From Dipteris shenzhenensis (lineage: Eukaryota), in assembly GCA_047967505.1 (NCBI GenBank), contig CM106538.1: a DNA stretch of 64,000 nucleotides; one strand, given 5' to 3'. This document shows, piece after piece, positions 2,752 through 52,896 of this stretch. Both the position numbers and the translations under genes were made by a program. Numbering within the stretch: the stretch's first letter is position 1; each line of letters opens with the position of its first letter. A model generated the notes under the pieces. It ran no database searches. It saw only the letters and a program-made list of their open reading frames with translations, and had not been told where the DNA came from.

Positions 2752-2780
2752 TTGAATTGAGCTCGAGGAAGATGAACTCT

Positions 2781-2838
2781 CCTATATATTTATATATATA
2801 TATACACGTACGTACTATATATATATATATATATACAC
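2781..2838 (-). promoter_or_regulatory. (TA)n/ACGTAC tract just upstream of the MATH-BTB start; possible TATA region
   Basis: TATATA runs with CACGTAC motifs 30-90 bp upstream of the ATG. Confidence 0.3.
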
Positions 2839-3397: not shown

Positions 3398-6160
3398 CAC
3401 TACTACACACGGATCCTATTGCGACGTTTACGTACCGACGTTTAGTGCGCGGGGTGCTAATTGTCGGTATAAAAAGCGCGTCCCATAAAGCGTTGCTATA
3501 TAGTGACTTTAGGCAAACGTCACTATATAGCGACTATTACAAAGGTCGCTATATAGTGACACTGATATACTATTTTATAGCGACATTTTTCAGAGAGGTT
3601 TTTTACTCATATAGGCCTTAAAAGTTCGTTTTTTCCAATGATAAATTTTTTTAAATTTTCATACATGTTTGATCTCATAGAGAATAAAAATATGAGAGCA
3701 TGTACATCAAACCTTTGAAGCTCGTATATTCATGTCCAAGTTTGAGATGAAAAAAATCAATGAAGAGCATTTACATCAACTGTTTCATCTTGAGCCAAGT
3801 CTAAGGTGCCAAACAAGTCTATCTCCAACTCTATACTGAGTTGATCTCCTATATCATCATCGTACTTTAGCATCGTACGTTCACCTAAAACACTTGATCA
3901 TCTTCTTCAATAAAGTGTGGTGATTCTTTTGTCTTCTTCCTCAATATTGTGATCTCCATCTTCCTCCCGTGCGATGTCATTATGCGCATCTTCCTCTTGG
4001 CTCATAATGTGATCTTTATCTTCTTCGCTAGATTCATCGGGATCAATTGGATCCAGCATTGGTAGTGGCATCTCCATATCCACAGCTCTATCTTCAAAAT
4101 TTTGCTTACTTCGTGGTGCAACTTGGATCACGTACCACCATCTTGGATCAGAATGATCCGAATGAAAAACCACCTATATTGAAGATGGGTGCCAAATGTC
4201 ATCAATTATATACATGAAATTATGCTCAAGTACATGTATCAATGGATCTTCAAAAATGAAAGCTTCGATTAATTAAATCATTAGTATGCACCTACTCACA
4301 GTACTCGGGAAGAACAAAAGTATCACTTTCATCGGCCTAATGTTTGGTGGAGTCTATTGCAAAGAAACCGCTACTATCTTTTCTCACTGTCGCATGGGGA
4401 CCGTTGTAAATAGTTCTAAACCATTTTACATCAAGAATGAAAATACTAAATTGTCTGAAATCAACTTCATAGATTTCGCGTATGGTTCCACAATAATCCA
4501 ACTGTGAGGAGAGAAGAAGCACTTGCTCGGCTATCTTGTGTGAAGTTAGCCATGACTCCACAATCATACATGACTCTCTTTGAATCGATGCGTTCCACGC
4601 GAAAATGTCATCCATATGACCATAATGCACCGTGACTCTCTTTGAATCGATGCGCTCCATGCGAAAATGTTGTCCATATGACCATAATGCACTGTACTTT
4701 TTGTACTATAAAAGAGCATCATTAAAACAATGAAGATGCATCTATTTTATAACGTATATTGCCACAAATAATTACTTAATTATGTCAAGAGGTAAGAAAC
4801 TTACATGCACCCTACATCTAGATGATAACTCTTGCTCGCGCTCGTTTATTGTCTCTCCATCGCGTTCGGCTTAACGTAGCGCCAGTTGTAGCCAATCAAG
4901 TAACATGTGAGTTGGGAGAAGAGCCATATCCCGTGGATATGGTTGCGATCGCCTGTACATTACTCTGAATCTCGTCCTTGCATTTATTCTTTCTGCTTTG
5001 GCCACTTCATATCTCTCAATACACTTCTGCATCTCAGGGCTATTGAGGATACAAAACTTATTGAATTTCTCCATTTGCTCTTCGCTCATCTTTCTTTCAA
5101 TCCCTTTTCCTTGGGGAACCTTGCCAATGATGCAATCATCATCCTTGTTATGCCAAGCTTGCGGCATATCGGGATTTGTGGATGCAAGAAACTTCGTGAT
5201 ATATACTAATGACTCTTGCATAAGCCATCCCTCTACCATGCTTGCTTCTAGTCTTGCTCTTTGTCTTACAAATCCCTTTAAAGTTTTCATAAACCGCTCG
5301 AGAAAAAACATCCATCGACTATGAACGGTACCTGCAATAGCCACCCCATCAACTATGTGCACAAGCAAGTGGACTTGAGTTGTCATAATGCTCGAGGAAA
5401 AGCGCTTCTCAAGCAAGCATATGGCTTCGATGGATTCCACCCTAGCCTTCTCGACTCTCTATATGGAGATCTCTTTTTGAGATATCCACCTATTTCACAT
5501 GTCCATGTAAGATATTTTCATAATCAGTCTACAGATTAATCAGCTTAAATTGAAGAAAATGCAATTAATGCGATTTGATAGTAAGCATACCTCACAATAC
5601 CATAGATCTTGAATATAGCATTTCTAACATCTTCTTATAAGCACCCTTTTATTGTAATTGGGAGGATGAACTATCAAAGTAACAAAGAAGTCATGTCAAT
5701 AATATAACATAATCATAATTATGCTAATGCATCACGATTATCGGTATACTAATTCTACAGCTTAGAATACTTGTAAGAACTTGTGCCAATCATGGGACTT
5801 GAGCCCACTAAGCTTATTGTCCTTTGAAAATGCTCCTTTCAAGCAATGCATGTACCCTATCGGTGTTTGGAAAGAGGCAATGTCCACCTTGACCACTGCC
5901 TCCTCCCTTGTAGAGAGGATCCACGTTGCTTTCGGGAGGACAACTTTTCCCGAAGCATGCACTTGGAGCCACAAACGAGACATCCTATTCATAGCACGCA
6001 AATCTTTTCGCACTCCTCTCGAGTCTTTGAAACCAACCAAGTGTGCCCAAATAGTAGCCCCCACATTCTTGAAGATATGCATGGGATCCAAGAGATGATT
6101 GATTTGTAACTGACCCCAATAAGGAAGCTCATGGAAGATCGATAGCCTCTTCAATGTCCC
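3398..6160 (-). mobile_element. CACTA/EnSpm transposon, 3' part: terminus plus decayed Tnp2/TnpD transposase exons
   Basis: CACTA terminus at 3398 with subterminal TATAG(C/T)GAC repeats in both orientations (3490-3585). Exons encode LPYW..HLLDPMHIFKN and GLKSHDWHKF (Transposase_21-like), VHLLVH..WMFFLERFMKTLK (DUF4218-like) and YCGTIREI..VKWF / WWYVIQVAPR (DUF4216-like). Confidence 0.88.
4571..4694. repeat. 62-bp tandem duplication inside a CACTA exon
   Basis: TGACTCTCTTTGAATCGATGCG... starts at 4571 and at 4633. Confidence 0.9.
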
Positions 6161-13400: not shown

Positions 13401-15324
13401 ATTAAAATGCAACTGATATATGCAACTGATATTGAGTCCTTTGGCTTCCTACCTTCCCATAACCAAGCCATATCTTTTGTGATTATGGTTGACGTAATAG
13501 TTAACACCTGATGTTACCAACATCCCTTATACCAACATCATCCCTATTCTATCATCTTCTTCCTTCAAGGTGGTTGCATTGCATTGCTCAAATATTTTAA
13601 TGCCATGTGTTGCATTTAGGATTTGTGTTCAACAATGGTTAAAGGGAAGTATCAATCTCATGAGAGAAAGATTCTAATGAGGCTTTGATTGATTAAAGAA
13701 TTGAGGACAATATTGGTAGAAAATATTTTTGGTTGTGTCTTATTCATCTCAAACTATCTACATTTATTTCAATGCTTTTTTTTTCTAGGAGCTTTGCAAC
13801 ACAAATATCAATGGTAATATCGATGCTTCTAGAACAAACTATAATAATTTTGATGCTTTTATTAATGTAAATTTTGATGCATCAACATAACATCATTTTA
13901 GCACTAAACATCTGTCATTTTCATTAAAGAATTAAGTAATAAGCACTGATAAATAGCATCAAAACAGGGGCTAATGTAGTAGTGGTATAGGAACTAGTAC
14001 AGATGGTTAATAGGCAATTTCTTGTTTTTTTTTAATTGACAAGGTTTTGTCATCATTTTTGCATGATTTCATGAAAATGGTGTTCACAAACATAAATTAC
14101 TCAAGAAGTGCACATGATAATGTGGACATGTAATCGCTATCCTTCAATCATCCCTTGCTTGTGTGATTTCTCATCATCACAAGTACCACTTGTTGATGGA
14201 TGATGAGGGTTAGGGGATGCCTGATGAAGATTAGGGGATGGTGGAGAAGAATCATGGATTTACTGAGGGGAACTCTTCGGATCCCCCTGGATCACTAGAA
14301 GTGTGTTCAGAGGATGCCATGGAGTTGGGAAACAAGGCTAACCTGGAGTCCTAATACGACTTCTAGTGGGTCTGGTAGATTTTTCTCTTGCCATAACAAA
14401 TGTGAGTTTAGGATTCACAATTTCTAAAATTGCTTTATGCCCTATTTTAAAACTAGTGTGGGGCCTTGTGTGTCCTAAATGGATAGAAGCCCCCATTTAT
14501 TTACCAACATCCATTGTTTTATTTACCAACGTCCATTGTCCATGTGCATCGAGAATATGCTACATAATGGAGCTAACATCATTTTTAAAACCAAAATTTT
14601 AAATAAAGCAAGCACAAAATTTGTAATGGTGATACACATATTTTATTGTACCCCTTGATTTTTGCATGTCCTCCATACCCTAAAACCAAATCCTCATCAT
14701 ATGCAATGCAACTACAAATACTTCTTCTCGAATCAATTTGAAACATAAACAAGATGCTTTATAGACCAAGGTGCTAGTAAGTGGCACTACAGATTCCTTA
14801 TGCTTTCCCATCTAGCAAACTTGAAAATTTTCAAAAACAAATATGTAAGCTCATTGTGACAACTTACATCTGCAAATCACAGTTTAAAACATATGGACTT
14901 AGCATCCAAAATGCCCTTGGGCAACTTGCACATGCAAGAGTATGTGTTTTGGGTCCTTCAGCATTCCAATGACCACTTGGATTCAATTAACTTTTTATGA
15001 AGAGTCAATATAATCCATGTTCATTAGTCCCATCACATCCTCTACCATGGATGTTCTAGATAATAAATTTCATTGAAACATTAGACCTTGTAGCCTGGAT
15101 TGTCATCTTTTGAGGAACATCTATGAATGAAGATGCTTATTTCCTTGCATATGAGGACTATGAAGCATATATTCAGAAGTTTCCCTACATCCCAAACTAC
15201 ATATGCTTGCATATTGAGCCTCCAATTCCAAGCTCACATAGTACTTGTTGGAGATGTTCTCATATGGTGCCATCAATTGTAGTCATAGAGTGGAGAGAGA
15301 ACATGGAAGGCCCTCAAACAACAT

Positions 15325-21805: not shown

Positions 21806-22573
21806 ATGACATTCCTCGTTGAGCTTGCGAAGGGAAGAGGCAGTGCGACAGTGAAAGTTCTCCTTTTGGGCTTGTTGATGTTACTTCCGTTTTGCCTCGC
21901 AAGGGATCACATTGTGGGAAAAGACCACGGATGGCAAGTTCCTGCAGATGCTGGGCCGAGCGTCAACCTGAACTACAGCACCTGGGCTGCATCCCAAACC
22001 TTTGTGTTGGGTGATACAGTCAGTAAGTTCTCTTTTTTCTGAAAATGCTCGTGCACTCTAAGCGTGGCTAGGGATCTAGCGTTTTCGATCATCATTTCGC
22101 TTCTTGACATGGTGTCTGATATCGAAACTCCACGTTGTGTCTCTTGCGATTAAAGCTCAACTTAATGGTCGATGCACCTCCCTGCAGCTTTTAGGTGGCA
22201 AAGAGGCCAACACACCGTCTATCAAGTCAACTACTCAACCTATGTGAACTGCAGTTTCAGTATGTACTACGGGCACGATTGGATTTACAACTGGACTGAT
22301 AGAATCGCCAGGGTTATCATTCCGCTGAACGAAACGAAGACTTACTATTTCGCATGTGGTGTGGGTGACCACTGCTCGCAAGGCATGAAGGTTGCTATCC
22401 CTGTGAGACAAAATGCGACTGTCGCTGCTACTACCACCTCCAATGCTACTAGCCCCTCCGGAGGCTCTGGTACAAAGGCGTCCTCTGGTGTCTCTTTGAA
22501 GTGTGCACGCTTAGCGTTGCCACTGGTTGAGGCTTTTCTGTTCATTGGCATTTTTTTCATTTTGTATCAGTAG
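21806..22573 (+). CDS. Phytocyanin (uclacyanin-like blue copper protein), 2 exons: 21806-22022 and 22188-22573, 200 aa
   Basis: Signal peptide, then DHIVG..GW and YSTWAASQTFVLGDTV. The GT-AG intron joins in frame (GDTVTFRW). Copper ligands H/C/H/M in GQHTV and FACGVGDHCSQGMK. Ser/Thr-rich stalk and hydrophobic C-terminus (GPI signal-like). Confidence 0.93.
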
Positions 22574-23430: not shown

Positions 23431-24431
23431 AACCCTAAGGCTCATAAGAGTCCTAGCATGAAGAGAGCAAAAAACAAACACTAAAAGATTGTGAGGGACA
23501 ATCTTGTTAACTCTTGAAACTATCAAACTAAGAGTTATAAAGAGGTTATAGGCACCAAAGTTTTGAATTAATGCTTCTTATTTTAAGCCGTCGCTTATTT
23601 AATTTCTATTCAGAATTAGTGGAGTACACTTCAAATTTAAGGTGTAAATAGATTCCAAAGCTCTAATGGCCTTGCCACAACAAACAAACCATTGAAGTCC
23701 ATATCTTTATGCACTTAATGTCAGAAAGATTGAATTCATCCAACTTGTCTAACCAATCTAATGGAAATCTACTCTAAAGCAAATGAGAATGGTAAAAGAA
23801 GATGGCATTGTGTTATACATATAAATCAAGCTCTAAAAGATTGGGAAAGTGACATGAAAAAGGCCATCTATGATTGATGTAAAGGGGCAAATGGAAGTAG
23901 TGTTGCCATAAGCTCACGACTTTCAAATGCAAGGGGCTTGTGCACTTGTTGGTTGAGTCTAGCATATTTATGCCCAAACAAGTGAAAAGTGGTTCCAAAT
24001 GCCAAGAAAGTGTGAAAAAAGAGGAAAATGGACTCTAGTCTTAAATAGTCATGCCACAATCTCATAAAATTCTAGTATGGGGGTCTTGCACATTTTGTTT
24101 GACTCATGGCCTTTTGCCCATTTTGTATGCTCAATTCAATGAAAATGTCTCCAAAGGCAACTAAGAAATTGTGGAAAAAGGCTACATATTATCCTGACTT
24201 GGAGTGGAAAAAGGATTCCAATTCTTGAACAATCTTGACACATGATTAAATTGACACATGATTAAATGTTTTAAGCATGAATGATCTTTCAACTTTGATA
24301 GAGAGTATCAATATAAGTTTCAAGTTAGAACAATGTAGGGTTGTGACTTATAAGGCTCAATCAAACCATCTAGAACTTAATTAGATCAATTATTGGCAAC
24401 ATACAAATGCAAAATATTAAATGCATAGCAT

Positions 24432-24743
24432 TGTGAGAACCACCCCAGACACCAAGCCCACTAATTGTCCCATACCTCCTCTAATCTCGTCTCAACCCAT
24501 GCACTCATTCGCTCCTTCTCCACTTGAGACTTAAACTTCACTTGTGGCTTATTATTATTATTATTATTAATTATCTAAGAATCCATATGGTTGTCTATAT
24601 GCCTAGGTAAAGTGATAACAAGACAGGGAAAACATGCATTACTTGTCTACCCAAACATAACTATGATGTTCTAACACCTAGTTTATTTGGATGGTGGCAA
24701 GTAAGTGGACCTCGACCTTGGAACTTGGACTGCTTGAGAATAT
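24432..24743 (+). repeat. ~300-bp repeat; inverted copy at 41212-41522
   Basis: AACCACCCCA..CCATGCACTCATTCGCTCCTTCTCCACTTGAGACTTAAACTTCACTTGTGGCTT is the reverse complement of the 41400-41515 region. Confidence 0.85.
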
Positions 24744-25399
24744 GAGCCTGCAAGAAAGGATTTATGGGAAAATGGCACCAAGCATAAGACAGTGTGCCGT
24801 CTCTAGTTTGAGTCTATTAAGCTAAATATAGAGAAGTTGGCTGTTGGGATGTTTATCTTTTTTTCCCTGGATAGGTGCCAAACTTGGGAGAGTTGTAAGT
24901 GCTTCTAGCTTATGAATGTGAGATTTAAGCTGACGGGTGCATAGCAAAGTTTATGGGGAAAGGTTTCTTTCTATTGCATTTTGTTTTGGAGGCTATTAGG
25001 AATGTGCTTGGTTGTTCTTACATGTTTTCAGGAGTTGCTATCTTGGTAATACCATGGATACCTCATTTAGCATTGACAAATTTATGTTTATGGAATGTCT
25101 AGTCTGGGTGGATTTTTCGAGGATGCATGTATGGACTACATGCGGTGTCTACCATATGCAAGAAAAGAGTTCAGCCCAAAACATGTGTGGATTCTTTAAG
25201 ACTGGGACAAGACACTCAAGATTTTGTTGATGTTCAATTATTTGATGAATCGACGGTCACAGAGAAGGTTGTTTTTTATCCTTCGTCCATGTTCTTGCTA
25301 CTTGTGCAACAAAACGAGGCATTGTGCATATTGTTGTCCTACTTGAGAAGAGAATACGAAGCTAACAAGGGGAGAAGATGAATTATGACTCTAAGATGT

Positions 25400-28290
25400 C
25401 TTCCTGAGTCTAGAATCATGCAAATGAAAGGTAGGCATTCACATGATGGATTGGCATATGTTAGGTGACATACATGCAACAAGAGGGAATCTAGAGGCTC
25501 CTAAGGCTCTCAACATAAAGAAGGTGACATTCAAGGGGATCAAAAGACACTAAAGGATGATCTAGTGTTGAGAGGCTTCATGCAGTGGAAGATTTGCCAA
25601 GGACAGGGGGGAAGTCGATGGATGGGAATTCACACACTTGTGCTTTGATGGTTGTAGATACTTGGAAAATAATGGGCAAAAAGGAAAAAGTTCTAGTCAA
25701 TTCTCAAGATAAGAAGATGGAGGAGTTTCTATCGAAGGTTAAGACCCTTGAACTTTTGAGGAGTGAAGGTGTGTGTCATGGTTCAGAGGCTAAAGCAATT
25801 GCTTGTTTGGTGGTTGAGGATGGCATCGAGGAAATTATGACCGATGTAAATCACCAAAAAAGGGTACTTGAAGAAAAGCCATAGAATAAGAAATCGTTGG
25901 AGGATGAGGTCCTGAATTGGTTGTGTCCAAAAGGATTAAGAATATGGCAAGGAATGCTATAAATGGAAAAGAAAATAGGTTCAATTTCCTATGTGATGCC
26001 TACAAAGCATTGGCTCAATAATGGAGCGCATGAGCGGAATGATTTTGTGGAATGTCTTCTTTATGCTACTACAAAGTCAAGCAAAATGATTGTGTCTCAG
26101 CTCTTCAAAGGTGGAATGCTGCAATTGTCCTTCTATAAGAGGTAAAGTGTGATCTTGATAAGGGTGTTTAGCTGGCATTTTATTAGATATGGTATGGAGT
26201 TTTTTTCAATTTTCTTGTGAGGGGTAGAGGGGGAATCATTGTGCTAATGAAGAGACCGATGGATGTGTCTAATGATGCTCAAGTCCATAGGGAATGTGGG
26301 AGGATTCTTAATGAGACAATGTTGGGGAGAAAATGGGTGTTAGGGAAGATAGATCTCATGCTGTCAAGGGGTTGTCATGTTTGGAATCAGAGGTTTAGGA
26401 GGAATGGTGTCTGGATAAGGGGTTGATTGACTATATTAAGCTAAACCATGAGGGGGTTTTCATGGAGTAATATGAGAAAGTGGGTGGATTTTAGAGCAAT
26501 TAGAATTGACAGATTTGTTGAAGTTTACAACCTTGATTAATTTAGATAGCCAAGATGTAGTGCCAAGCAATCAAGGGACTCCAAGCATTGGGATTTGTTC
26601 TTCAACCCCTTGAGATATTGTATTGTGATTGAACAATATTTTGTGATATTTGCTTTTTTGTTATAGACTCTATGTTGTTCATATGAGGTTCATAATTCTA
26701 TAAACATGATCTTGAAATAAATTGACTTTTTTACAAGTGCATCCTAAACCCTAAACCCTAAACTAGTAAGGAATGGTTGAAATCATGTTTAAAGAGAACA
26801 AAGTATCATTTTTAAAACATTCTTAGTAGCAAATTACAATATTCCTCTGTATCAGAGTTCTCTCACCAAGATAATTCCCAACTCTTATAAAATAGCATGA
26901 CAATGCTATGAAATAGCCATAAAGCATTATTTGAAAATAAGAGGAGGAAAAGTTGCACTTGGAGGATACCATTATGTAAGTGGCACAATGACTTGGAAGA
27001 GTAAAAAGAAATTTGGCATCCAAACGTTTGAGATGCTGAATGCTTTCAATAATGTTTACATGGATGTAGAGAATTTGCAGAGAGCCATGGTCAAATTCTA
27101 TGGGATGAGAGAAGAAGGTAAGAGAAATTCCCTCTTCGCATTCAACTTTACTTCATCTCATTTCTATATCCTTACTATATTTCTCTTTTGTTGTACAAAT
27201 GGCAAGCTAGTATTTGTTATAAAAATGGATGAAGCTCTGTTGGTAAAAGAGCACACAAGCTAGAGAGGGTGAGCATTTGTATTATGAATGATGCCTTACG
27301 TTTTGCTCAAGGGGATAAGGAAGTTGAGCAGGGTTTCTCAGTCTAATTTGAGAAGGACGTATGGTGGCTTGCAGCCTTTGAGACCCCAAAAGAGTGCCAC
27401 GAGACATTGAAGTGGGTTTTGGAGATAACCGGCATTTCATTGATTATTCAGAGACAAGAGACAGGGCAAACATTAATAGTGGATGGGCATGGAACGTTTC
27501 AAGTTGAATGGTATCTAGCTAGTGATTTGAAGACCCTGAAGTGCTTGTATGGTTGTGATATAGGTGTAGATGCAAAATGGACATGCTTGTATTGCACCCA
27601 CTCTTAGAAGATGCAAAGGGAAGCCTACAGTGGGAAAATGGCATCCTTTCTTGCAACCAAAGTGCAGCCCTTGATTGTCACAAAATAGATCCTAAGTGGG
27701 ACCCCATTCTACCGATTCCATTGGAGCAGGTACATGTGTGTAGTTTGCGTGCTGATCTGTGTATACTTGATAAGTTACTCTATCTCCATCTAGTTTATGA
27801 TTGGAAGTTGAGGCCACAGCAAGTCTCTACCTGATGCATTGTAAAAGCTGAAGAACTATTCTCACTAATGGGACTTCACGGAGGCAATGTGAAGCATAAG
27901 CAAAATAATAAACAATTAGGAAAGACACAAAATCTTCTTGCTAAAGTGTCCATGGGTGGAAGAAAGGCAAGGAGGTTCTTGTCCAACCAGAATGCTAATA
28001 AAGAAGAACATACATTAGCTCAAAGCACCCTAGGTTATGAGTACTAGAAAGCTTTGTGTGAGTGTGCTTCACATCCACAAATTTCTACTTTGAGAGCAAA
28101 AATGTGGAAAAAGATTGATGCATTTATAAAGTTGTTTAGACAAGGTCAAATAGATTAGCTTTATTATAAGAGATTCAGGACAAGGTCAAATAGATGAGCT
28201 TTATTATGAGAGATTCAGGACAACATTGGGAGCATTCATATCATTGATGGTAGAAGCATGGGGGGGGTCACATATTACACATTACATGGT
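25400..28290 (+). pseudogene. Decayed DDE transposase, Transib/RAG1/Chapaev-like
   Basis: Reconstructed across stops and frameshifts: VIKMDEA (D at 27228), LASDLK (D at 27524), WTCLYC (27578-27595), VHVCSLRADL, SMGGRKARRFL (27949-27981) and HITHYM|gt (28271-28290). The 5' boundary is approximate. Confidence 0.65.
28141..28220. repeat. 40-bp tandem duplication within the transposase relic
   Basis: CAAGGTCAAATAGAT starts at 28141 and at 28181. Confidence 0.9.
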
Positions 28291-28428
28291 AGATTCATGC
28301 CAACAACAATTAAAGTTACAAAATACAATGACAGTATAAAATAAAATTTGTAAAAGAACACAAAATGGAACACTATATAAAAAGTATATTTGTATTCATA
28401 TAAAATAAAATTTCTATACAATAAGGCT

Positions 28429-29159
28429 TCATAGCCTTTCTCTCTTCTCTAAAACATTGAGAATATCGGGCTTTGAATTCCCAAATAGACTCCGCTCTAA
28501 ACCTAGTCTCGATAGGGTGTCAATGCTATTGTTGTTGCTACTAGCCAGGGACATGGCTGTTGTCGTCAATGCCATACCTTGAGAATTGGTTCCAAAAGCA
28601 TTGAGGGCAGCCATGCGGTTCACCAAAATGACCTTGTAAGCATTTTCGGCTCTTCATTGTAGATGTTGGGCTCATCTATAGAAATAAGAGGATCAAAAAG
28701 GGCAGGGGTAGGGTTAGGGCTTGAGGTCGAGGCCTCCTCTTCCATTTGTCCCTCCTGGAGAATGAAAATAAAGGACATTTCCTAGGATAAGAACCTATTT
28801 CCCCTATTTTTGATGACTCCACATGCTAGGAGGTCATCAGTGTCCACCTCCCTAAACCCTAGGGGTGTGAGCTGGGCTCGAAAGTGATCTAAACACTTCA
28901 TGAACTTGGGTTCTTGATTGAACAAGTACTTCAAATAATCAATTGGGATCCATCTTTTTATAGACTCATCAAGTTGATATGCAAAACTCACAGTGTGGTC
29001 TTGCATGTACTTGATGAGGTCTTCAAAATCATCTTGCGCTCGCAAGTAGGTGCCTAAGACATCTACGCTCTTATCAAAGACTGAAAATAACTACTTCTCT
29101 CTGTCAACTAATGGAGTATGAGAGATGAAATCGTGGAAGGCAGACCTAGCAGAGTCCAT
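28429..29159 (-). pseudogene. Disrupted ORF of unknown function, convergent with the transposase
   Basis: ATG at 29159 (MDSARSAFHDFISH), TATA-like run ~70 bp upstream, protein-like 87-aa core (28782-29045), internal stops. Confidence 0.45.
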
Positions 29160-29359
29160 GGTAGTTTGGTAGCTAGGAGAACTATGGCTATGATAGTGAA
29201 ACTTTGAAACTAAAGGAACTTTATAACCTATATATACCCAAATGTTCTAAATATAAATAATAATATGAATTATATTTTTTTGGGGCAAAACTTGCATTGA
29301 CATGAAACAAAACCATTGAAAAAATCAAAATTAATTGCACCACTATGAATTGGAAAATG

Positions 29360-31150
29360 TCAAAATCCACAATTGTTCCACCCCACATTATTTACCATCT
29401 TCAATATTGCAGGAGGGATAAAAGTGGCACTATGCATGCATTTCTCTACACACTTTCCTACCTTTTCACAATTTAAGGTAAAGTGAAAGGACTCAGGCAT
29501 GCCATCCTCCATGACCAATAGGTGTTCCCACATGTCCCTGAGAGTCCATTGTGATGTGATGGTCACATTTTTGACATCTCCTAAATGAGAATCAATACAT
29601 AAACTTACCCCTATATTATCATCATTGATAGAGTAAAAGGAGAGCCAATTTCCACCTATTTTCTTCCAGCACCTATATTGGAAAGCAAAATATAACATTT
29701 GGTGGGAGATGTGGTACTTGACAACCACATTGTCCTTACATGGCATTAAAATAGATCACCCTTTTCTTCACGTGACCTACTTCCCCAATCACCCTAGATC
29801 TCATGTAGGCACTTGCATGACCACATGGTTTTTGTTCTGTGCATTTGGATATTCTGAAAACAAGAAGCTAAAATGTGTAGAGGCATAAACCAAGACAACC
29901 TTACCCATTTAGAGCCAAATGTAAACTGCATGGCCATGCCCACATCCTTTGCAATCTTTCCCTTTTATGATTGCACTGTTCTTGTGTCCACCATGGTGCA
30001 ATCCATGTCTTTAAGTTGTGGTGTTGCAATGCATTAAGAATGGCCATATCCTCATGCCATCCTTTGAGTAATGTACTTGGCATTATATCAATAGATATTT
30101 CTCTATTTCAAAGGAGAGGACTTCTCTCCAGCATGCATTTGCCTTCCTAAATCCTCATGAATGGCAGTAAACTTACCTAAGAAGCACTCGATTGGTTCCC
30201 ACTCCTCAAAGTTTGAAGGAAATACATTTGCTATTATGCACAAGTTCTATTTCAAAATAATATTTCAAACTGATTCATTACACTTAGAAATCTAACACAA
30301 AATGTAGACTTACAATGCAATGGTATTGTCGATTGCTTGCTTGATGAAGTAAGGCACATGTACTTCCCCATGTAGATGTGTTGCGCCTTTGCAAGCCATC
30401 CTTTCTTCCCAAGCTTGAACTTCATGATGTGGCCCTTCCATTCATGCAAAAGATCACATCTCTTGGGAAGCTTATGTGGACCCTTGGCAGATCCTCTCAT
30501 GAGAATATCCAATCATTCAAGCTGTAGAAGGCACCCATTCACCCAGTGCATTTTTGCTCCTGTGGGACATAGAGGACATGTATGGTCTCCTTGCCATGCT
30601 TGTACAGAGGTCAAAACAACAAGAGTGGACCTGAAAGTGTAGCTTGGAGGGAGAGAGTAGCTCTGATAGAGGGAGAGAGAGGGAGAGGGGGGGAAGGTAT
30701 AGAGGGTGCAACTGAAGGTGGAGAGCAGCTCCAAGAGGTGTTGTAGCTAGGGATGGAGGGAGAAAGACCAAAGGGGGATGAATAGCTACTCCAGGCGGTT
30801 TTGTAGCTAGGAATGGAGGGAGAAAGAGCCGAGGGGCCACTACAGGAGGTACTATAGCTAGGAATGGAGGGAGAAAGAGTAGAGGGGGATGAGTAGCTAC
30901 TGTAGGAGGTGTTGTAGCTAGGAATGGAGAGAGAATAAGAAACTACTACAAGAGGTGCTCGAGAGGGAGAAAGACAGTGGACCAGAGTAGGAGGGGGCAG
31001 AGAAGCTGCCAAATGAGATCCCACATAAGCTGGACCAGAGAAGAGGAGGGGGTAGGCCTGCAACAAGCTGATAGGGGGAAAAAGTTGCCCAGAAGCATAC
31101 ACCACCTCTTGAATGACTTGTAGGATTGTTTGGGGGAGGTGCATGTGGGA
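29360..31150 (-). pseudogene. Disrupted multi-exon gene: Ser/Pro repeats, CPLC motif, BAH-like domain, possible C-terminal ubiquitin-like domain
   Basis: The GT-AG intron 30313-30231 joins WKGHIMKFK..WLAKAQHIY..PLHS to NVFPSNFEEWEPIECFLGKFTAIH in frame. The C-terminal segment reads VTITSQWTLRDMWEHL..PESFHFTLN. Confidence 0.5.
30640..30950. repeat. Imperfect 51-60-bp tandem repeats (SPSIPSY on the minus strand)
   Basis: (G/A)TAGCTAGG(A/G)ATGGAG at about 30743, 30803, 30854 and 30914. Confidence 0.8.
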
Positions 31151-31944
31151 GGAGGGTCAAGCATGGGTTGAGGGGGGGGGAAGGTTTGAGTGGTCCTCGA
31201 TGTAAGAGGAGTAGCCAATAAGGGCTATTTGTAGGTTTGCCCACCCTCCACCTCAACATGGCATTGCCCCACAGAAAGGAGCACTCCCATTGGTACACCT
31301 CAAATACCTCACTAATCCCTTGAAATTAGGAAACACTAATTGGGGGCCCTTTGGAGACCTCGATTCTCCCCTAATGTGAGAGGAAGAAGTGAGTGGAATG
31401 ATCCATATTAGTCACTAGGCATGAGTGCATAGTCACCTAGACAAGCACTTTATGATGGTGAGTAGCAAGCTACAAAATTAGCTTGGAATAACATACCATT
31501 ATGACTTATGCAACAATAGACATCTGGATGGAGGATTCTACCTAGGCAATATGAAAAGTAGTTGAATCTTTAGCCGATGTTAGAGGCATGCTTGGAACAT
31601 TTCCAATAGTATGCGGCTAGGAGAGAAGAGCACTTCCATTGAGGTGCAAGAAGTTGGTGGAATTAGGCTGATTTGAGAAAAAAATTGAATTTAAGCCAGT
31701 GATGGTTGATCAATGGAGAGAGTGGGAATACTAAATGTTCCCCTAATAGTGGAGAGCACAAGGAATGCAAAGACCCACCATCCTCACTTAGAGAGGGCTG
31801 ACATCTGACTATTACAATGAGACTCGAAGTGAACCTGCCCTTGAATTGTGACCAATATATGATGAGGGGAAGATTGTAGAAGGGACCTCAAGATGGTTGC
31901 ATGAAGGTTTAGCCAAGTCTAGAGGCAAAGTGTGCCTGGGACAA

Positions 31945-32680
31945 GGAATGTTGCACTATAGCATAGATAAGACATTAGCGAGGTTTGACCATGACCAATG
32001 AATCCTAGGACAAGACCAAGAATCAACACGTGCATGAGCAAGGGAGTTAGTGCATGATCCAAGCTATGAGTGAGAGGCACAACAAGCCTCGAGTCTCCGT
32101 GTGCTTTTGGCTAAGAGCATTATGTGAGATGAAGCCATCTTATCTAAAGTCCAAATGTGTCTAATAGCAAGATCTGCACCAGGCTCCAAGGAACAACATG
32201 TTGAGTCAAGATATGCATCTGACGGGGTGAGAGACAAATCTGACTAAAAAATATAAGAGACCCCCAATTCACCACGCATATCTATGCCTTAGACAGGGAA
32301 TGTTGCACTATAGAAGATGATCCATAAGCTATCTAGAGGACATGCATGCCTTGAATAGGCAACATTGCACTGTAGAGGATGAGCCATGAGCAAGATTACA
32401 TCATGGTTGAAGAACCAAGACATGCATGAGTAAGGGAATTTGTGCATGAGCCAAGATATGTGTGAGGCACAACAAGACTCGAGTACCCACATGCTTCCAA
32501 CCAAGTGCACAATGTGAGATGGAAGACATTATATCTCAAGTATAGATGAGTGTCTAACACTGAGAGGTGCACTAAAATCTAGGAGCACCATGCCAAGTCA
32601 AGATGTGGATCTGATGGTGAGAGATGCACTTGAGTGAAAAAGATAAGAGACCCAGAGTGACCATGCACATATGACTTACA
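31945..32680. repeat. Diverged ~350-bp direct tandem repeat
   Basis: GGAATGTTGCACTATAG at about 31945 and 32297; ATAAGAGACCC at about 32254 and 32644. Confidence 0.65.
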
Positions 32681-32999
32681 AACAATGAAGAGATAGATGA
32701 GAGGCAAGAAAACAGAGTCGACGGTCAAAGTATGTGCACAGTGATAATTGCAGACACGAATGACCAATGGGGCCAAGTGTAGCCAAGAGTGAAGGACAAG
32801 TGCCTACCAAAAGCTAGAGACGGAGTCAAGATCTAAAATGTGATCAAAGGGAACAACTGAGGCCAAGGACCCCCAAGGTGACTATAGCCAAGCTGAGATC
32901 TATTGAGCTAAGGTAAAATTCTAGGGAGAGGACCATTATAGTCACCTCCAAATCTTTTTACGAGTTTGCCACATTAGTGGAGCAATGGCCAAGGAAGAG

Positions 33000-34745
33000 T
33001 ACAAGAATTATTTCCCATGTAGCTTGGTCAAAGTTTCTTAGAGATCATTCAATTAGTTTTCTATTAGCTACTTCATAGATTGGTAGCACATGTAAAGCTT
33101 TTCTTAGGATATTCAGGTAGGAGATCAATGAAAAAGATGTTCGAATCTAGTTGAATGATCTAAAGTAGAGGAAAGGTGAGCCCCATACATGATTTTGTGC
33201 TACATATATCAATGGACTTAGTACACCACCAAATGATAAATGGCTGCATACTTGATTGATTATTGGCTTGCAAATGGACTTGCATTCATAAAAAATTGTA
33301 AACCCACCCAAGACATGTGAGGAGATCTTGAACTGAGCCATTGTTTTGAAGAAGAGTGGAGTAGTCAAGTATAAGCAAAAGAAGGTGGCAAAAGTGAGGA
33401 CAATGATGCCTCGACATCAACAAAGAGAGATAAACTCAATTCTAAACTCAAGAAGTCCTTGCAAGAACTAGGTATCCAATGGAACTAAAGAAAAAGTGTC
33501 TTTTGTATAAGAGTAGGCAACCTATTTAGGTAGACCATTTTTAGGGAGGGCATACAAATTGAGCCTTCCAAGGTCCAAGCAATAGGATAGATTATAGAGC
33601 CCGAGTCTGATGCAACTCGGATTCTTTACTAGGTTCATTAGCTTCTATAGGAGGTTTGTGAAGGATTTTTCGAAAATTATGGCACCTCTTTATGAGCTTA
33701 CTAGGGAAAAGTTCCAAGTTTCATTGGTGTGAGGAGTTTATAGTATCCTTCCATGCTCTTAAACAATGAGCAACCATGATAGTAGCATAAGGTGGCCTAG
33801 GTGGGATGTAATCTTTCATGTTCATATTGATGCATCGAGGTATGCCATTGGTATCACCTTGGCACAACCAAATGGTAGGATGTATTACCTAGTTTATTAT
33901 GCTAGCAGACTCATGACCCCAGTTGAGTGCAACTATAATACTACCAAGTGAGAAACTCTTGGATGGTTTATAGTGTCCATAAAATTTGATGCTATTTCCT
34001 TGGTAATCCTTTTGTTTTCTATGTTGATCACCAAGATTTGTTGTATTTGATTAACAAAGCAGTCATCCAGGGATGATTGATGCATTGGATGTTATTATTA
34101 TAGGAATTCACTTTTAAGCTCATCCACAAACTAGGCAGGTCACATGCAGGAGCAAATTGTCTCTCATGGTTGCCGGCTCTCGGACCCCACTCAAGTTGTC
34201 ACTATTGAGATTTCAAATCCTCAGTTATTTGCAATTGATATTTTTAAATCCAACTATGATAAGATGCTCTAGCACCTATTGTTGCAGGCCACATGTGTTA
34301 AAAATATGTCCTGAGATGAGAACGGACAACTTGCCTTCAAAGCTTGGAAATATATCTTAATCGAAGTCCAACACTATCACCAAGGAGGTCTTACACAAAT
34401 ATGCTCTTCCTCAAGAATGAGCAATCATGATTGATGAGGCATAGGCTAGGCTAACTAGAGGACATTTTAGTGGAGAACTCATAGATTGGAAAGAGCCAAA
34501 AGTAGGATTGTGGTGGAACGCCCTGTTGCATGGAATGTGATGTATGTCAAAGAACAGGTTGCTTATTGCCACAACATTACATACCCCTTCAACCAAATTA
34601 GCCTTGGGGGGGAGCTTTCTAGTGTTGGGGGTTGGATTTTATGGGTTGGTATAAAAATTTGGCCTAGTATACACAAAAGAAGTACATCCTAGTTTCCATA
34701 GATTATACCATAAAGTGGCCAAAAGCCAAGGCACCATGGGATAAC
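33000..34745 (+). mobile_element. Highly degenerate Ty3/Gypsy pol (RT, RNase H, integrase start)
   Basis: SFYRRFVKDFSKIMAPLYELT, FHVHIDASRYAIG and VYYASRLM..ECNY, with many stops. Confidence 0.75.
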
Positions 34746-40642: not shown

Positions 40643-41646
40643 AAAGAAATAAGTGTTTGTGTGTGTGAGATACATTTACTAATCAAATTTGTGTGTGTGT
40701 GCATGGCCCACCCCCAACCCAAAGGGTAAGACCACATGGTGGGGAGTAAGCCCACCATGTGGAACTTACTCCCCACCTACTGAACAATAAGTGAATTAAC
40801 GTGGATCTATATGATAAGTGTCAAAATGCAAAAATGATGCCAACAGTAAATGTGTAAACCACTTCTGCAAAATAGATATAAAAGTTAGTAAAAGATAAGG
40901 CAGATCACAAAATGACTAGGGATTATCCATGCTAAATAATTATCCAGTGGATGTGAATTAACTGTATGGCATGAGCCCGACCAAAGGCTAGTTGGGAAAT
41001 CAAAGTGTGTGTTTAGATTAAAAAGTCCCATTAATAATCGAGCCATATAATTAATTCCATCAATTGGATAAAAAGTAAAAAAAAACATATAAGGAAGAAA
41101 TGTTTGAGACATCTAAGTTGAAAAATGCAACAACTAGAGTTTGCAAAATTTCGATCAAAATTAAGATTTTTTAACAATATTGAGTTTGATAAACATAATA
41201 TTGGAAGAAGATGTCAAATCCTCAGGTAGTCCAGGTTCCAAGGTCGGGGTCCACTTACCTGCCACCATCCAAACAAAATAGGTGTTAGAAAATCATAGTT
41301 ACGTTTGGGCATATAGGTAATGCCTGTTTTCTCCGGCTTCTTATTGCTTCACCTAGGAATATAGACAACCATATGGATTCTTAAATAATTAAAAAAAAAT
41401 TTAAGCCACAAGTGAAGTTTAAGTCTCAAGTGGAGAAGGAGCGAATGAGTGCATGGGTTGAGATGAGATTAGAGGAGGTATGGGACGATTAGTGGGCTTG
41501 GTGTGTGGGGTGGTTAAAAACAGAGTGTAAAGGGGAGATTTCATGGGTGTAAATGAAAGAATAATTCATAGTTGGGAAGTATACATGTGTGTGTGTGTAA
41601 AGAAATAAGTGTTTGTGTGTGTGAGATACATTACTAATCAAATTTA
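40567..41646. repeat. Two ~110-125-bp direct repeats containing (TG)n (40567-40690 and 41538-41646)
   Basis: ATTTCATGGG.GTAAATGAAAGAATAATTCATAGTTGGG occurs twice. Confidence 0.85.
41212..41522 (-). repeat. Inverted copy of the 24432-24743 repeat; possibly a solo LTR (TG...CA)
   Basis: Reverse-complement identity to 24438-24743; no TSD found. Confidence 0.7.
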
Positions 41647-49030: not shown

Positions 49031-52000
49031 TCAAAAACAAGTAGAGAACACTTCAAGGCTAGTAGCATCCAAATCCCTTGCAGCAAAACTGTCATGTAAG
49101 GATTGCTTGAGGGACATTCTGAAGAAAATATATGCCTGAGGAAACTGTTGACCCATCCTAGAATGCAGTCTCTGTGTCCAGATGGTCCATAATACCCAAA
49201 AGGGAGTCCAATGAAAGAAAAGGAGTAATGGAGACATCTGAGATGAGAGGCATCCAAACATCCAGAAAAGTTTCCCAAATCTGCTAGAAGGGAACCGAAG
49301 CCGCAGTAAATGAGAAACATGAGTGATCAATGTGCGAGAGTGCGGGCAAAACCATAATAAGTGAGGAACTGTCTCGCGGGGATGAGAGCAACGGGGGCAG
49401 AAAGGAGAAGCAATGCGGCGTGCTGCCAATTTCACCCCAATGGAAAAGGCTCCCACTATACATCTCCAAAGGAAAAGCCTCTGTTTCAATGGCAATTTGG
49501 CTTTCCAGATTTTCATGAGTCGGGATTGCCACCAAGATAAAGGCCTATCCAAATTCCAAAGAGTGTTGGCATGCTTGTCAATCCATGGCTGTGGAAGAAG
49601 AAATCTGTAAACCTTCGAGGAGGTCAGATTGTGTATTGAGAGCGTATGGGTAGCAGGAGGTATGGAAGTCAAATTCCAGTCCATTAATCTGTCTTGTGCA
49701 AACAGTGGAGGAACCGGAACAAATGGCTGCAACATAGTTGAAAGTGTTCTCCAAATGGATCTATGATGCAGACCCAAGGAGAATGTCCTGCAAGCTTGTG
49801 GAAATGAAAGTGTATAGCCTTGTTGATCCACAACATCACCAACAAATCTTATGCCCAATTTCATGAGATTATATGCTTTGATAGGTGCCTGTAAAGCGAG
49901 AGGCGATGCAAACACCTTGCTCCAATGGATGCTTTCCAATCGAAAAGAATTACCATGATGAGAGGAAGCACCTGTCCATTTTGCATATGAAAGAATTCTC
50001 TTCCAATCATGAAGAAAAGCAGTAGAAACAGGGCAACCAGGAATTTTTCCCTGAAAGGAAGATAAAACTGCTTCCCAGTGATCTGTAATCCAATGCCCAT
50101 ATGCATGGGAAGCCATGTTTCCACACATAGCTGCTAACATAATAGCCCATGGTTGTTTTTGCTGAAAAAAATCAGCAATCATAGTGCTCTTTCTTGCCAA
50201 CATATGAACCTGGAGATTGAGAATATTCAGCCCCCCATGAGTCTTGGGTGAACAAATAGACTGCATAGGTAGTAGTCGCAAAGCTTTTTTATGAGATTTG
50301 CTTTTCCAAAGTATCTCCATAGCTTGGGACATATAAGAAGCCAAATGCTTGAAAGACCAAGGAAGAAGAGGCAAATAAAATTGCACATATGCCATAATGA
50401 TGGACTGTACTATCCGGAGTCGAACATGTAAAGGCCAAGTGGACAAATGCCAGTATTCCAGCTTCTTGTTGATCTTTTGAAGCACCCATTTGAGCTGTTG
50501 TTGCGGAGTAATATTCCAGCCAATGGGGTATCCGAGATGTCTGACAATAGTAAGGGAAGAGATAATGTGGCCTGGCCAAAAAAGTGCATGCCAATCAGCT
50601 TCTTTCAAAGCTAGAAGTTTTGATTTCTGAAAATTGATATGCAGTCCAGCAGCTATGCCAAAATCATTCAGTGTATGCATCAAACGAGAAAGATCACTTT
50701 GAGAATTCCTTGGCATGAAGTATGAATCATCAGCATAGGCCTGTGCAAGAAAAGACTGTGCCCCTGGAATTTGCAAGCCATGAAGCTGTCCTGTATCTGC
50801 CAGATAGTCCATATGCAAGAGTAACGGATGGGTAGCAATGGCATACAGTAAGGAACTAAAAGGGCAACCCTGTCTCACTGAGCGAGTCATAGTCCAGGTT
50901 CTTGACAACCCACCACCAAGCAAGCACTGTGCCGTGGCGTGAGAATAAAGCCAGTAAATGATGTGGACGAGTCGAGGGCCAAATCCCAATTTTTGCATAG
51001 TTTGAGAGATGAAATCCCAATGGACAGTATCAAAAGCTTTCGCAATGTCTACTTGCAGAATGAGAACATCTTGTTTAGAATATTTGGCATACTCAATCGC
51101 AAGCAAGGCATTGGAGATATTGTCAGTGATCTGCCTTCTGGGGACAAATCCATACTGCCTAGGATGAAGTCCTGCTTGCAAGAGGAAGCGAACCCTGAGG
51201 ACAATCATTTTAGCAATGAGTTTGTAAATGACAGGCATGAGGGATATAGGCCGCCAATCAGCCATCGTCTCACACAACCTTTTTTTGGGAATCAATTTTA
51301 CTAGGCCATGTTTCCAGGATGGAGGAAGAGATTGTTCTGCCCAAGCATGATTGATCATTAGAAGGAGAGTGTTCTTGAGATCACCCCAAAATGCACGGAA
51401 GAATTCAACAGTCAGTCCATCCCAACCAGGGGAGCTGCTTTTGCGTAGATGACTCAAAGCATCTTCCAGTTCACTAAGCATAAAAGGCTGCTCCAATGCA
51501 TGGGCCTGTTCCCGAGATACTATGGGCTGAACATGCATAAGGAATTGAGACCTGGCTGCATTTACTTGCATCAAATGATCAGGTTGAGAAGAAAGGAGAT
51601 GCTGAAAATGACTAGAACATTGCAATTCCAAGTCTGATTTGGAAGTGGTCCAGGTGCCATCAGCTTTCTTGATCCTGCAAATATCCTCCTTTCGCCTATC
51701 CGCATGGAGACTTTTAAAAAAGGCTTTGGAGGAGCAGCCCTTATCCAAAAGGGGTTTCATACGAGCTCGGATTTGCCACTTCTTTAATTTGCGAAGATCA
51801 TTTTGATGAATGATATGAACCGCATAAGCACAAGAATCCTGTTCAGAAGAAGTAAGCTGCCTATGAGAACTGATTGCATCCATTTGCTGCTTGTGGGATT
51901 GAGCCCATTTTATCTTGAGCCGAAGGTTTTCCATGTAACTCCGTCCGTAGTCTTGAATAACAGCCTGTAAGCGATGAGCAAGACTGATCCAAGCAAAATC

Positions 52001-52849
52001 CATATCCTCCTGAGCATGTAAGAGGAGGGGACGGACAGCCACTCTCACCATGTTCTGAAATTGTTGATGAAGCAAGTAGGCACTATTAACATGGAGCAAG
52101 CGATGACCAAAAAAAGGCATATCATCTGTCAGACGTGCTATTGATAATGTCAAGCATACTGGAAAATGATCAGATAGCAGGAGGGAGTGATCAATCCGCA
52201 ATGTACATGTAAAATCAGCATACTGCTGAGCATGCAGTAAATACCATCTGTCAAGTCGAGCCCAGTAATGAGTAAAGGCATTGTGATGATATGTATAACC
52301 CATATCTGTGTCCCTTGTTGAGAGCCATAGATCTTCTGCATGCAGAGATGAGAGCATATCTTCCCAATGTCGGAGCTCAGTGGGGATCATGTGAGAGCGA
52401 TGAGTAGTATTGTCTTGGGAGGCAGGCGAATTGTTAAAGTCTCCACACAAAAAAGCATTGGAAAGCCATGGATATTGTTTGAGGGAGGCCCACATTTGAG
52501 CTCTAGTCGCAGAAGTTTGTGAGGCATAAACAGATGCTATTTCATAGAGAGTATCCTGCCAGGTGCACCTGATCACCATCCATCGACCCTGAGGATCATT
52601 GTGGGCCACGGTGGGCTGTATATCATGTTTTACCAGCATGCAAACCCCCGAAAAGTGCATTGTACCAGCATAAAAAATATCATAACCAGCATAGTGGCCT
52701 TGCTGGCCAGCCAAGAAGTGTTGGTTGTGTTCTTGTAAGGAGATCACATCGGGATGCATTCTATGTACATAATGCCAGAAAAGTCTCCACTTATTGACAT
52801 TGCAAAGACCCTGAACATTGTATGTAATGCAAGTAATTGAAGTAGACAT
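49031..52849 (-). CDS. LINE ORF2: AP endonuclease, reverse transcriptase, C-terminal zinc finger (1272 aa, uninterrupted)
   Basis: YNVQGL, LQE, GDFN, RLDR, SDH; WRPISL, DIAKAFD, VRQGCP, YADD; CPRC..HLLWFC. Confidence 0.97.
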   Translation of the reverse strand: MSTSITCITYNVQGLCNVNKWRLFWHYVHRMHPDVISLQEHNQHFLAGQQGHYAGYDIFYAGTMHFSGVCMLVKHDIQPTVAHNDPQGRWMVIRCTWQDTLYEIASVYASQTSATRAQMWASLKQYPWLSNAFLCGDFNNSPASQDNTTHRSHMIPTELRHWEDMLSSLHAEDLWLSTRDTDMGYTYHHNAFTHYWARLDRWYLLHAQQYADFTCTLRIDHSLLLSDHFPVCLTLSIARLTDDMPFFGHRLLHVNSAYLLHQQFQNMVRVAVRPLLLHAQEDMDFAWISLAHRLQAVIQDYGRSYMENLRLKIKWAQSHKQQMDAISSHRQLTSSEQDSCAYAVHIIHQNDLRKLKKWQIRARMKPLLDKGCSSKAFFKSLHADRRKEDICRIKKADGTWTTSKSDLELQCSSHFQHLLSSQPDHLMQVNAARSQFLMHVQPIVSREQAHALEQPFMLSELEDALSHLRKSSSPGWDGLTVEFFRAFWGDLKNTLLLMINHAWAEQSLPPSWKHGLVKLIPKKRLCETMADWRPISLMPVIYKLIAKMIVLRVRFLLQAGLHPRQYGFVPRRQITDNISNALLAIEYAKYSKQDVLILQVDIAKAFDTVHWDFISQTMQKLGFGPRLVHIIYWLYSHATAQCLLGGGLSRTWTMTRSVRQGCPFSSLLYAIATHPLLLHMDYLADTGQLHGLQIPGAQSFLAQAYADDSYFMPRNSQSDLSRLMHTLNDFGIAAGLHINFQKSKLLALKEADWHALFWPGHIISSLTIVRHLGYPIGWNITPQQQLKWVLQKINKKLEYWHLSTWPLHVRLRIVQSIIMAYVQFYLPLLPWSFKHLASYMSQAMEILWKSKSHKKALRLLPMQSICSPKTHGGLNILNLQVHMLARKSTMIADFFQQKQPWAIMLAAMCGNMASHAYGHWITDHWEAVLSSFQGKIPGCPVSTAFLHDWKRILSYAKWTGASSHHGNSFRLESIHWSKVFASPLALQAPIKAYNLMKLGIRFVGDVVDQQGYTLSFPQACRTFSLGLHHRSIWRTLSTMLQPFVPVPPLFAQDRLMDWNLTSIPPATHTLSIHNLTSSKVYRFLLPQPWIDKHANTLWNLDRPLSWWQSRLMKIWKAKLPLKQRLFLWRCIVGAFSIGVKLAARRIASPFCPRCSHPRETVPHLLWFCPHSRTLITHVSHLLRLRFPSSRFGKLFWMFGCLSSQMSPLLLFFHWTPFWVLWTIWTQRLHSRMGQQFPQAYIFFRMSLKQSLHDSFAARDLDATSLEVFSTCF

Positions 52850-52896
52850 AAAAGATATGTACAGTCAAACCAAAAGGCAGAATAAAGTGTAAACTG

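Follow-up and report, generated by a model that had tools for sequence, protein, structure and literature searches.

The stretch analysed here, 64,000 nt of contig CM106538.1 of Dipteris shenzhenensis (assembly GCA_047967505.1; the window, below), is transposon-rich plant nuclear DNA. In its central part, the remnant of a transposase with the RAG1/Transib fold lies on the plus strand and faces two sets of minus-strand open reading frames (ORFs), named ORF A and ORF B. A preliminary description, made from the sequence alone, had interpreted the three as one undescribed DNA transposon, in which a Transib-like transposase, starting at 25400, faces two convergent accessory genes. The region was compared with a family of related proteins (P numbers) and with eight metagenome contigs of 1.5-4.4 kb, fetched around transposase relatives and including L004 and L005. 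Its features are as follows.

26743..26763, no strand: plant telomere-type heptamers CCTAAAC/CCCTAAA, 3 copies (Tandem Repeats Finder, period 7, 3.0 copies, 100% matches).
26808..28291, plus strand: transposase pseudogene fragment, RAG1/Transib fold (tblastn with P0001-P0003 and 151 family proteins; family profile).
27118..27206, ends approximate, plus strand: intron retained after ...FYGMREEG, at a position common to relatives.
28138..28223, plus strand: 40-nt tandem duplication inside the fragment, 2.2 copies (Tandem Repeats Finder score 144).
28292..28428, no strand: AT-rich junction, 79% A+T, from the last kept transposase exon boundary to the ORF A stop.
28429..29159, minus strand: ORF A, decayed homologue of ORF2 (P0186 of L004), found by tblastx, tblastn and BLASTP.
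29160..29359, no strand: AT-rich spacer, 72% A+T, from the ORF B stop to the ORF A ATG.
29360..31150, minus strand: ORF B set, putatively coding, with frame pieces of 131, 68, 86 and 181 amino acids (aa).

Both minus-strand sets are present where they had been placed, and the spacers are short and AT-rich, as described, the A+T content of the whole window being 58%. In the six read-through frames of 28300-31750, Pfam found no family, retroelement or other, in agreement with the remark that no retroelement intervenes.

None of the region's 15 ORF pieces has a Pfam family at E <= 1. An 86-aa piece at 27347-27607 matches P0001-P0003, with E values from 1.7e-22 to 3.7e-13, and in tblastn the homology to the transposase is confined to 26808-28291, where it runs through frames 3, 2, 1 and 2 and is interrupted by at least five in-frame stops, besides the frame changes. 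When the 151 family proteins were searched against the window, 215 rows were obtained, of which only two fell outside 26808-28300, both unrelated. The family profile matches the fragment with E 7e-54, over positions 127-518 of 657, and the fragment corresponds to residues about 74-549 of P0001/P0002. It is 36-40% identical to the plant-like family members, being about equally distant from all of them. It keeps the first D (KMDE) and the second D (ASDLKTLKC), together with the CxxC (CLYC) and the HITHYM motif, while the N-terminal domain and the last exon, bearing the H(4)H motif and the catalytic E, are missing. These matches, well above chance, show 26808-28291 to be, as judged by alignment, a truncated transposase pseudogene. 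The copy is dead and carries no functional weight.

At the intron site, the tblastn alignments to P0001, P0002 and L001 show a gap of 25 residues, and L005 reads through an insert there. Since an intron is retained at a position common to relatives, the fragment is a genomic and not a processed copy.

The interval 25400-26807 matches neither the family proteins nor the profile of the family N-terminal domain (best E 6, in a profile scan of 23500-27000). A resemblance noticed by eye, between FNFLVRGRGG and FLQFVGRGENG, is not supported as an N-terminal-domain match. The conserved last exon was not found anywhere in the 64 kb by tblastn, by loose searches or by the family profile; weak matches at 14463-14507 and 29808-29895 are not significant. 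Because the N-terminal domain and the last exon are both undetected, the remnant is truncated at both ends and the proposed start at 25400 is unsupported: the transposase assignment stands for 26808-28291 and falls for 25400-26807. The telomere-type heptamers, 45 nt upstream of the point where homology starts, may mark a healed break or be a chance microsatellite.

With a profile of P0001-P0003, 538 cluster representatives were retrieved at E <= 1e-3; a threshold of 1e-10 left 316 and one of 1e-30 left 69. Short fragments make up most of the 538, as expected of transposon debris. The P0001 cluster includes the full-length forms P0152 and P0160, of 695 aa. After THITHYMV, the full-length relatives have a short intron (read through), followed by a highly conserved last exon, HIL[YF]AHG...GSL..W..QGME[RK]SHY.AK..YFKNTRHGGG, present in 11 family sequences. 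Family sequences display the motif order D, D, C(2)C, H(4)H, E as ...GDLKTLKC...C-IY-C...THITHYM / H-ILFA-H...QGMERSH; catalytic residues were assigned by this order rather than by residue-level structural alignment. Neither the search for related loci in viral contigs, which found none, nor the prokaryote genome search extended the family: the one match in a bacterial metagenome-assembled genome (L009; 36 residues, E 5e-4) was taken as chance.

A conserved N-terminal region was also observed upstream of the RAG1-like core (L001:250-1005; L003:429-1232; L005:769-1419; P0179 residues 61-330). It is made up of FLQFVGRGENGLLGYCRRL, a coiled coil and a basic GGARKRR.ATR stretch, matches no Pfam family, and is possibly a DNA-end-binding domain.

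The fold of the family was evaluated on an AlphaFold2 model of P0152, based on 146 aligned sequences (predicted local distance difference test score, pLDDT, 79.3; predicted template modelling score 0.78). In a Foldseek search with this model, all of the 36 listed rows of ranks 1-49 are RAG1, BbRAGL or HzTransib, with a best E of 2.1e-9, Hermes coming next at 3.7e-3. VIA-align 2 superimposed residues 67-651 of the model on residues 475-1008 of RAG1 (4wwx_B), with Z 18.2 and a root-mean-square deviation of 4.7 over 440 residues; the Z score was 16.6 for HzTransib (6pqx), 11.2 for the P element and at most 7.7 for Hermes. The predicted structure thereby shows the family to share the RAG1 core fold, which extends from the dimerisation/DNA-binding domain to the C-terminal domain and comprises an RNase H catalytic domain and a zinc-binding insert, and to group with RAG1 and Transib; the window itself holds only a fragment of a family member. 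"Transib-like", as the transposase had been called, therefore holds at the level of the modelled fold, while at the sequence level the likeness is barely seen.

Pfam assigns no family to P0152. Transposase_21, DUF4218 and DUF4216 are absent among the 25 listed of the 33 Pfam families matched at E <= 0.1 by the 146 members, and the family would accordingly lie outside CACTA/EnSpm (CMC) as delimited by domains. Altogether, it is a strongly diverged, plant and algal, RAG1-fold family, not recognised by Pfam.

A passage of PMC12730594 characterises the whole CACTA/EnSpm-Mirage-Chapaev-Transib (CMCT) clade, Lanisha included, by the order D, D, C(2)C, H(4)H, E. The family sequences follow this order, and the window keeps D, D and CLYC, without the exon bearing H(4)H and E. 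To our knowledge, solved structures exist within the CMCT clade only for RAG1 and Transib members, so that the fold match cannot separate Transib proper from Lanisha or from another lineage. Lanisha is a cut-and-paste superfamily proposed, according to a portion of PMC8245031, from the moss Ceratodon purpureus (GenBank MT647524, Repbase Reports 2020); the transposase family possibly belongs to the Lanisha lineage. Elsewhere, 39 Transib-like proteins were reported in plants in a section of PMC9435367, the supplement of which gives examples from Capsicum chinense, Arabis nordmanniana and Corrigiola litoralis. The excerpted part of a Pfam-domain survey of 1007 plant genomes (PMC12973397) lists active elements of seven superfamilies, with no Transib among them.

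ORF A extends on the minus strand from an ATG at 29159 to a stop at 28429 and is interrupted by two in-frame stops and, near 28650, by one frame break. On its own, it has no homologue (in a protein search among longer proteins only) and no usable ESM Atlas match. A tblastx comparison of 28300-31750 with the eight related loci gave a single match, between 29081-28836 (minus strand) and L004 2126-2371, with E 1.8e-14. In L004, the transposase gene includes both the intron and the last exon and ends at 1839; it is followed on the same strand by an intact ORF2, of 349 aa (P0186), whose Met lies at 2048, 208 nt after the transposase stop. The likeness of ORF A to P0186 covers residues 27-135 at 27-30% identity (tblastn E 6e-13, 30% over 112 residues; BLASTP E 2e-13), and its conserved N-terminal domain is found at 29081-28752. 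The C-terminal piece, 28429-28653, shows no detectable similarity to the ORF2 C-terminus (E 1.7).

Over 2201 nt, L005 and L004 share 83% identity, and L005 has the same ORF2 start, at 84% aa identity, before its contig ends. As the likeness of the two loci extends into the start of ORF2, this gene is part of a repeated unit in that organism. Chance adjacency of an ORF2 homologue in an unrelated genome is very unlikely, and the transposase and ORF A therefore appear to come from one element family; on the sequence comparisons, we are close to confident that they belong to one element. The co-occurrence at other loci that the preliminary description had proposed as a check is thus found for ORF A, whose homologue in L004 and in L005 adjoins a transposase of this family; the orientation is not that of the window, the two genes being in tandem, on the same strand, in both loci and convergent here.

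A search of sequencing runs with the region listed no RNA run, and only two runs, each with a small share of the region; contigs of these two other organisms, X1 and X2, were aligned to the window for comparison. They show 80-95% likeness to it over parts of the transposase, of ORF A and of ORF B. The flanks 24806-26941 and beyond 31748 have almost no cover, and an uncovered part proves nothing. Read depths over the region were about 5-14 and then 40 for X1, and 1-6, 12-20 and 32-103 for X2; depth is not copy number, and nothing was drawn from these values. Near 28646, ORF A has an internal deletion, at which the contigs of both X1 and X2 break (28644/28648), one of them continuing with 187 unlike letters. 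The 14 listed X1/X2 differences within the 28782-29090 frame fall 6, 5 and 3 times on codon positions 1, 2 and 3, a spread consistent with neutral decay.

Along 26950-31350, the differences from X1 and X2 mostly consist of A/T in the window where the contigs have G/C; in X1, A>G (39) and T>C (52) make up this class among 198 listed changes. Changes towards A/T are the pattern expected of methylated-cytosine deamination in a silenced copy, which the window copy would then have been.

In diverged copies from a sister subfamily, a histone H3-like gene was observed in the slot after the transposase stop, on the same strand (L003:3699-4436 and L002:2658-2888), starting 172 and 274 nt, respectively, after the stop. 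In the H3-like protein, a MARTKQTA tail is combined with a long insert and a histone fold (Pfam Histone, E 3.1e-18, in L003); the assignment in L002, where the gene is cut by the contig end, comes from the N-terminal MARTKQTA tail. The middle region of P0186 is long and acidic. This acidic region, together with the H3-like gene in the same slot, favours a chromatin-related role for the ORF2 helper; the downstream gene could be a chromatin-related helper, which for the function of ORF A itself is a guess.

Homology of the window to its relatives ends at the THITHYMV exon boundary, right at the ORF A junction, and 28292-28428 is likely a rearrangement breakpoint. Tandem order in L004 and L005 and the ending of the transposase at an exon boundary suggest that the convergent layout is secondary, produced by rearrangement or by the juxtaposition of two partial copies. 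It could alternatively be native, the region being a three-gene element of ProtoRAG type, with the transposase facing two convergent accessory genes, merely decayed. Such an element would account for the adjacency of the three parts, for the short AT-rich spacers with no retroelement between them, and for the contigs of two other organisms, in which stretches of all three are represented and the spacer is connected to ORF A in one record and to ORF B in another; that ORF A is a genuine partner of the transposase family fits it as well. It would not account for the tandem position of the partner gene in both L004 and L005, nor for a transposase that stops, without its conserved last exon, exactly where the ORF A junction begins. 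Moreover, no homologue of ORF B was found, and the eight related loci, with flanks of only 0.1-1.9 kb, lack it, while neither terminal inverted repeats (TIRs) and target site duplications (TSDs) nor a RAG2-type domain were detected. A native convergent unit is accordingly regarded as improbable, and the ProtoRAG-like layout originally suggested as probably not original to the element.

We favour instead a dead, rearranged copy of a multi-gene (two-, possibly three-gene) cut-and-paste plant transposon with a RAG1-fold transposase, an explanation to which we assign a probability of roughly 0.6. In the native unit, the transposase would be followed by a spacer of about 200 nt and then, in the same orientation, by the second gene. 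The window copy would have been broken in the last transposase intron, losing the exon that bears the catalytic glutamate and the H(4)H zinc ligands, and ORF A now faces the transposase. Active copies may move like Transib and RAG, by DDE catalysis on an RNase H fold with a CCHH zinc site, and their downstream slot would carry a chromatin-related helper, acidic and of ORF A type in one subfamily, histone H3-like in another.

The ends of the element were searched for in the flanks. Hallmarks of Transib are a 5-bp TSD and TIRs starting with a heptamer, CACNNTG, similar to that of recombination signal sequences (RSS). A comparison of 24700-27000 with 31200-33800 gave no inverted repeat above chance, the longest exact match being 11 nt (E 1.1), and paired RSS-like heptamers were likewise not found around the region in this truncated copy, whose ends may be lost. 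Like the preliminary description, our search of the flanks therefore retrieved no termini.

Two inverted copies, 85-94% alike, of a dispersed repeat of about 310 nt were observed at 24438-24750 and 41205-41515, the left one being 5'-truncated; the repeat also occurs in contigs of two other organisms. The pair was considered as TIRs of a 17-kb element and rejected, as the left copy is truncated and no TSD is present at the flanks; a contig of another organism, which continues like the flank of the right copy, also speaks against TIRs.

The pieces of ORF B are distributed over all three minus frames, between 31156 and 29360. A Ser/Pro-rich tandem repeat of 60 nt, purine-rich and of low complexity, lies at 30729-30935. 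A frame as long as the 131-aa one was reached in 42 out of 300 shuffles, and one as long as the 181-aa frame in 2 out of 300, but the latter is inside the 60-nt tandem repeat; the frame lengths of ORF B are within chance. No Pfam family, no homologue (among longer proteins only) and no ESM Atlas match were found, nor any match to the transposase profile or in the eight related loci (best E 0.03; locus flanks only 0.1-1.9 kb). Since their contigs stop at or before the end of ORF2, these loci cannot show sequence beyond it.

The possibility that ORF B is no gene, and that a non-coding repeat with a Ser/Pro-like 60-nt tandem array lies beside the transposon remnant, draws on the same observations: stop-free runs of at least 131 codons are common among the shuffles (42/300), the longest frame is in the purine-rich tandem repeat, the frames change repeatedly and homologues are lacking. 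Against it, X1 and X2 contigs match 29574-31341 at 80-95% likeness, so that the sequence is conserved or repeated among relatives, coding not being implied. We hold this explanation for unlikely, although less so than a native convergent unit.

The contiguity of these contigs is the sole link of ORF B to ORF A. An X2 record (13, at 29122-29352) joins the first 38 nt of ORF A to the spacer, and an X1 record (6, at 29162-29581) joins the spacer to the last 222 nt of ORF B.

Along the minus strand, 200 nt separate the end of ORF B from the ORF A ATG; in L004, the transposase stop has the equivalent position (208 nt). A derivative in which other sequence replaces the transposase would fit this spacing, as a conjecture. 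Extended to the whole region, the idea implies separate remnants side by side: on the plus strand a truncated transposase, on the minus strand another copy, or a non-autonomous derivative, with ORF A and a captured host fragment (ORF B) in place of the transposase. Plant DNA transposons such as Pack-MULEs and CACTA elements are known to capture genes, and ORF B is not transposase-like by the family profile, both of which agree with separate remnants as the spacing does. The expected ends, TSDs and second set of transposase sequence are nevertheless missing, and ORF B shows no match to a known gene or domain from which a host donor could be recognised; we consider separate remnants the least probable of the alternatives.

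Under the favoured explanation, a rearranged copy of one transposon, ORF B most likely represents additional cargo or a neighbouring repeat, and its membership in the element is doubtful, if somewhat less so than a non-coding origin is unlikely. Of the proposed three-gene element, the part formed by the transposase and ORF A is thus retained as one element family, while the inclusion of ORF B, for which no homologue was found, is held as no more than possible.

Several results weigh against the explanation just favoured. No TIRs, TSDs or element ends were found, and the mobility of this copy as one unit is therefore putative. The rearrangement is deduced from two loci of one other organism, and none of the listed contigs spans 28291-28429; a simple inversion keeping the last exon is excluded, as this exon is nowhere in the window. 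Concerning the function of ORF A, Pfam finds no family in the intact ORF2 (P0186), the model of which has a pLDDT of 35.9 and is unusable. Concerning the transposase, Pfam RAG1 (PF12940) matches only one of the 146 members, in the last exon, with E 0.0038 and 15.8 bits, the cut-off being 25, and in PDB sequences a profile search yielded 3 chance-level matches, neither RAG1 nor Transib being among them. Transib membership in the sense of Kapitonov and Jurka (2005) rests on significant transposase similarity, which these sequence searches did not detect.

The remainder of the window contains further genes and mobile element remains, besides copia and Ty3 remnants.

1585-2781, minus strand: MATH-BTB gene.
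4874-5458: CACTA DUF4218 remnant, unrelated to the transposase family studied here.
22166-22570, plus strand: phytocyanin gene.
49034-52864, minus strand: ORF2 of a long interspersed nuclear element (LINE), uninterrupted, 1277 aa, with endonuclease, reverse transcriptase and zf-RVT domains.

The LINE is possibly a young or active non-LTR (long terminal repeat) element. To the right of ORF B, a Ty3 remnant lies at 33.7-37.3 kb, and a search for its LTR pair found none. Between ORF B and this remnant, sequence without other annotation contains a tandemly duplicated segment of about 390 nt at 31933-32653, the copies being 74-90% alike. Second copies of the transposase fragment, of ORF A or of ORF B do not occur within the 64 kb.

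The closest known systems are Transib and RAG1 (HzTransib 6pqx/6pqn, mouse and zebrafish RAG1, BbRAGL 6b40). With them, the family has in common its predicted fold across the RAG1 core, the nonamer-binding domain excepted (Z 16.6-18.2 for 400-440 aligned residues), and the D, D, C(2)C, H(4)H, E order. In contrast to them, the similarity of the family remains below the Pfam and PDB-profile thresholds, an N-terminal domain of its own is present, and the partner gene, not RAG2-like, stands in tandem, not tail to tail, in L004 and L005. The ProtoRAG and RAG-like elements similarly combine a RAG1-fold transposase with a second gene, and the window resembles them in its tail-to-tail arrangement; here, however, the layout is tandem in intact loci and the second gene (ORF A, P0186) has no Kelch or PHD domain in Pfam. 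Neither accessory ORF had been thought to look like RAG2, and indeed Pfam found no RAG2-type domain in ORF A, in ORF B or in the read-through frames.

V(D)J recombination descends from RAG1-fold transposases, which had been regarded as rare outside animals. The 538 cluster representatives, being outside the reach of Pfam, suggest that RAG1-fold elements are under-counted in plants and algae.

Accessory proteins are known from several plant DNA transposons: VANC of VANDAL, TnpA of CACTA, the Myb-like ORF2 of PIF/Harbinger and MURB of MuDR. Interactions of accessory proteins are mentioned for PIF, CACTA and Mutator-like elements (MULE) in a part of PMC12973397. Like VANDAL, CACTA, PIF and MuDR, the family studied here carries within the element a transposase and a separately encoded putative helper; unlike their helpers, to which it has no sequence or domain similarity at the Pfam level, ORF A stands apart. 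In a literature search, outside the scope of which were Repbase and the Lanisha report, neither the conserved second gene nor its H3-like alternative was found. A conserved second gene, replaced by an H3-like gene in a sister subfamily, would be a new and testable case of transposon-encoded chromatin helpers.

As a far-reaching and quite improbable extension, a widespread lineage of RAG1-fold elements in green plants and algae could have been missed by standard domain models, with a downstream slot occupied by acidic ORF A-type or H3-like chromatin proteins, which would aid the choice or opening of chromatin or the escape from silencing, and with ORF B as a third co-mobilised component in the lineage of the window. 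If this were true, the chromatin-helper slot would be a plant parallel to the partnership of RAG1 and RAG2.

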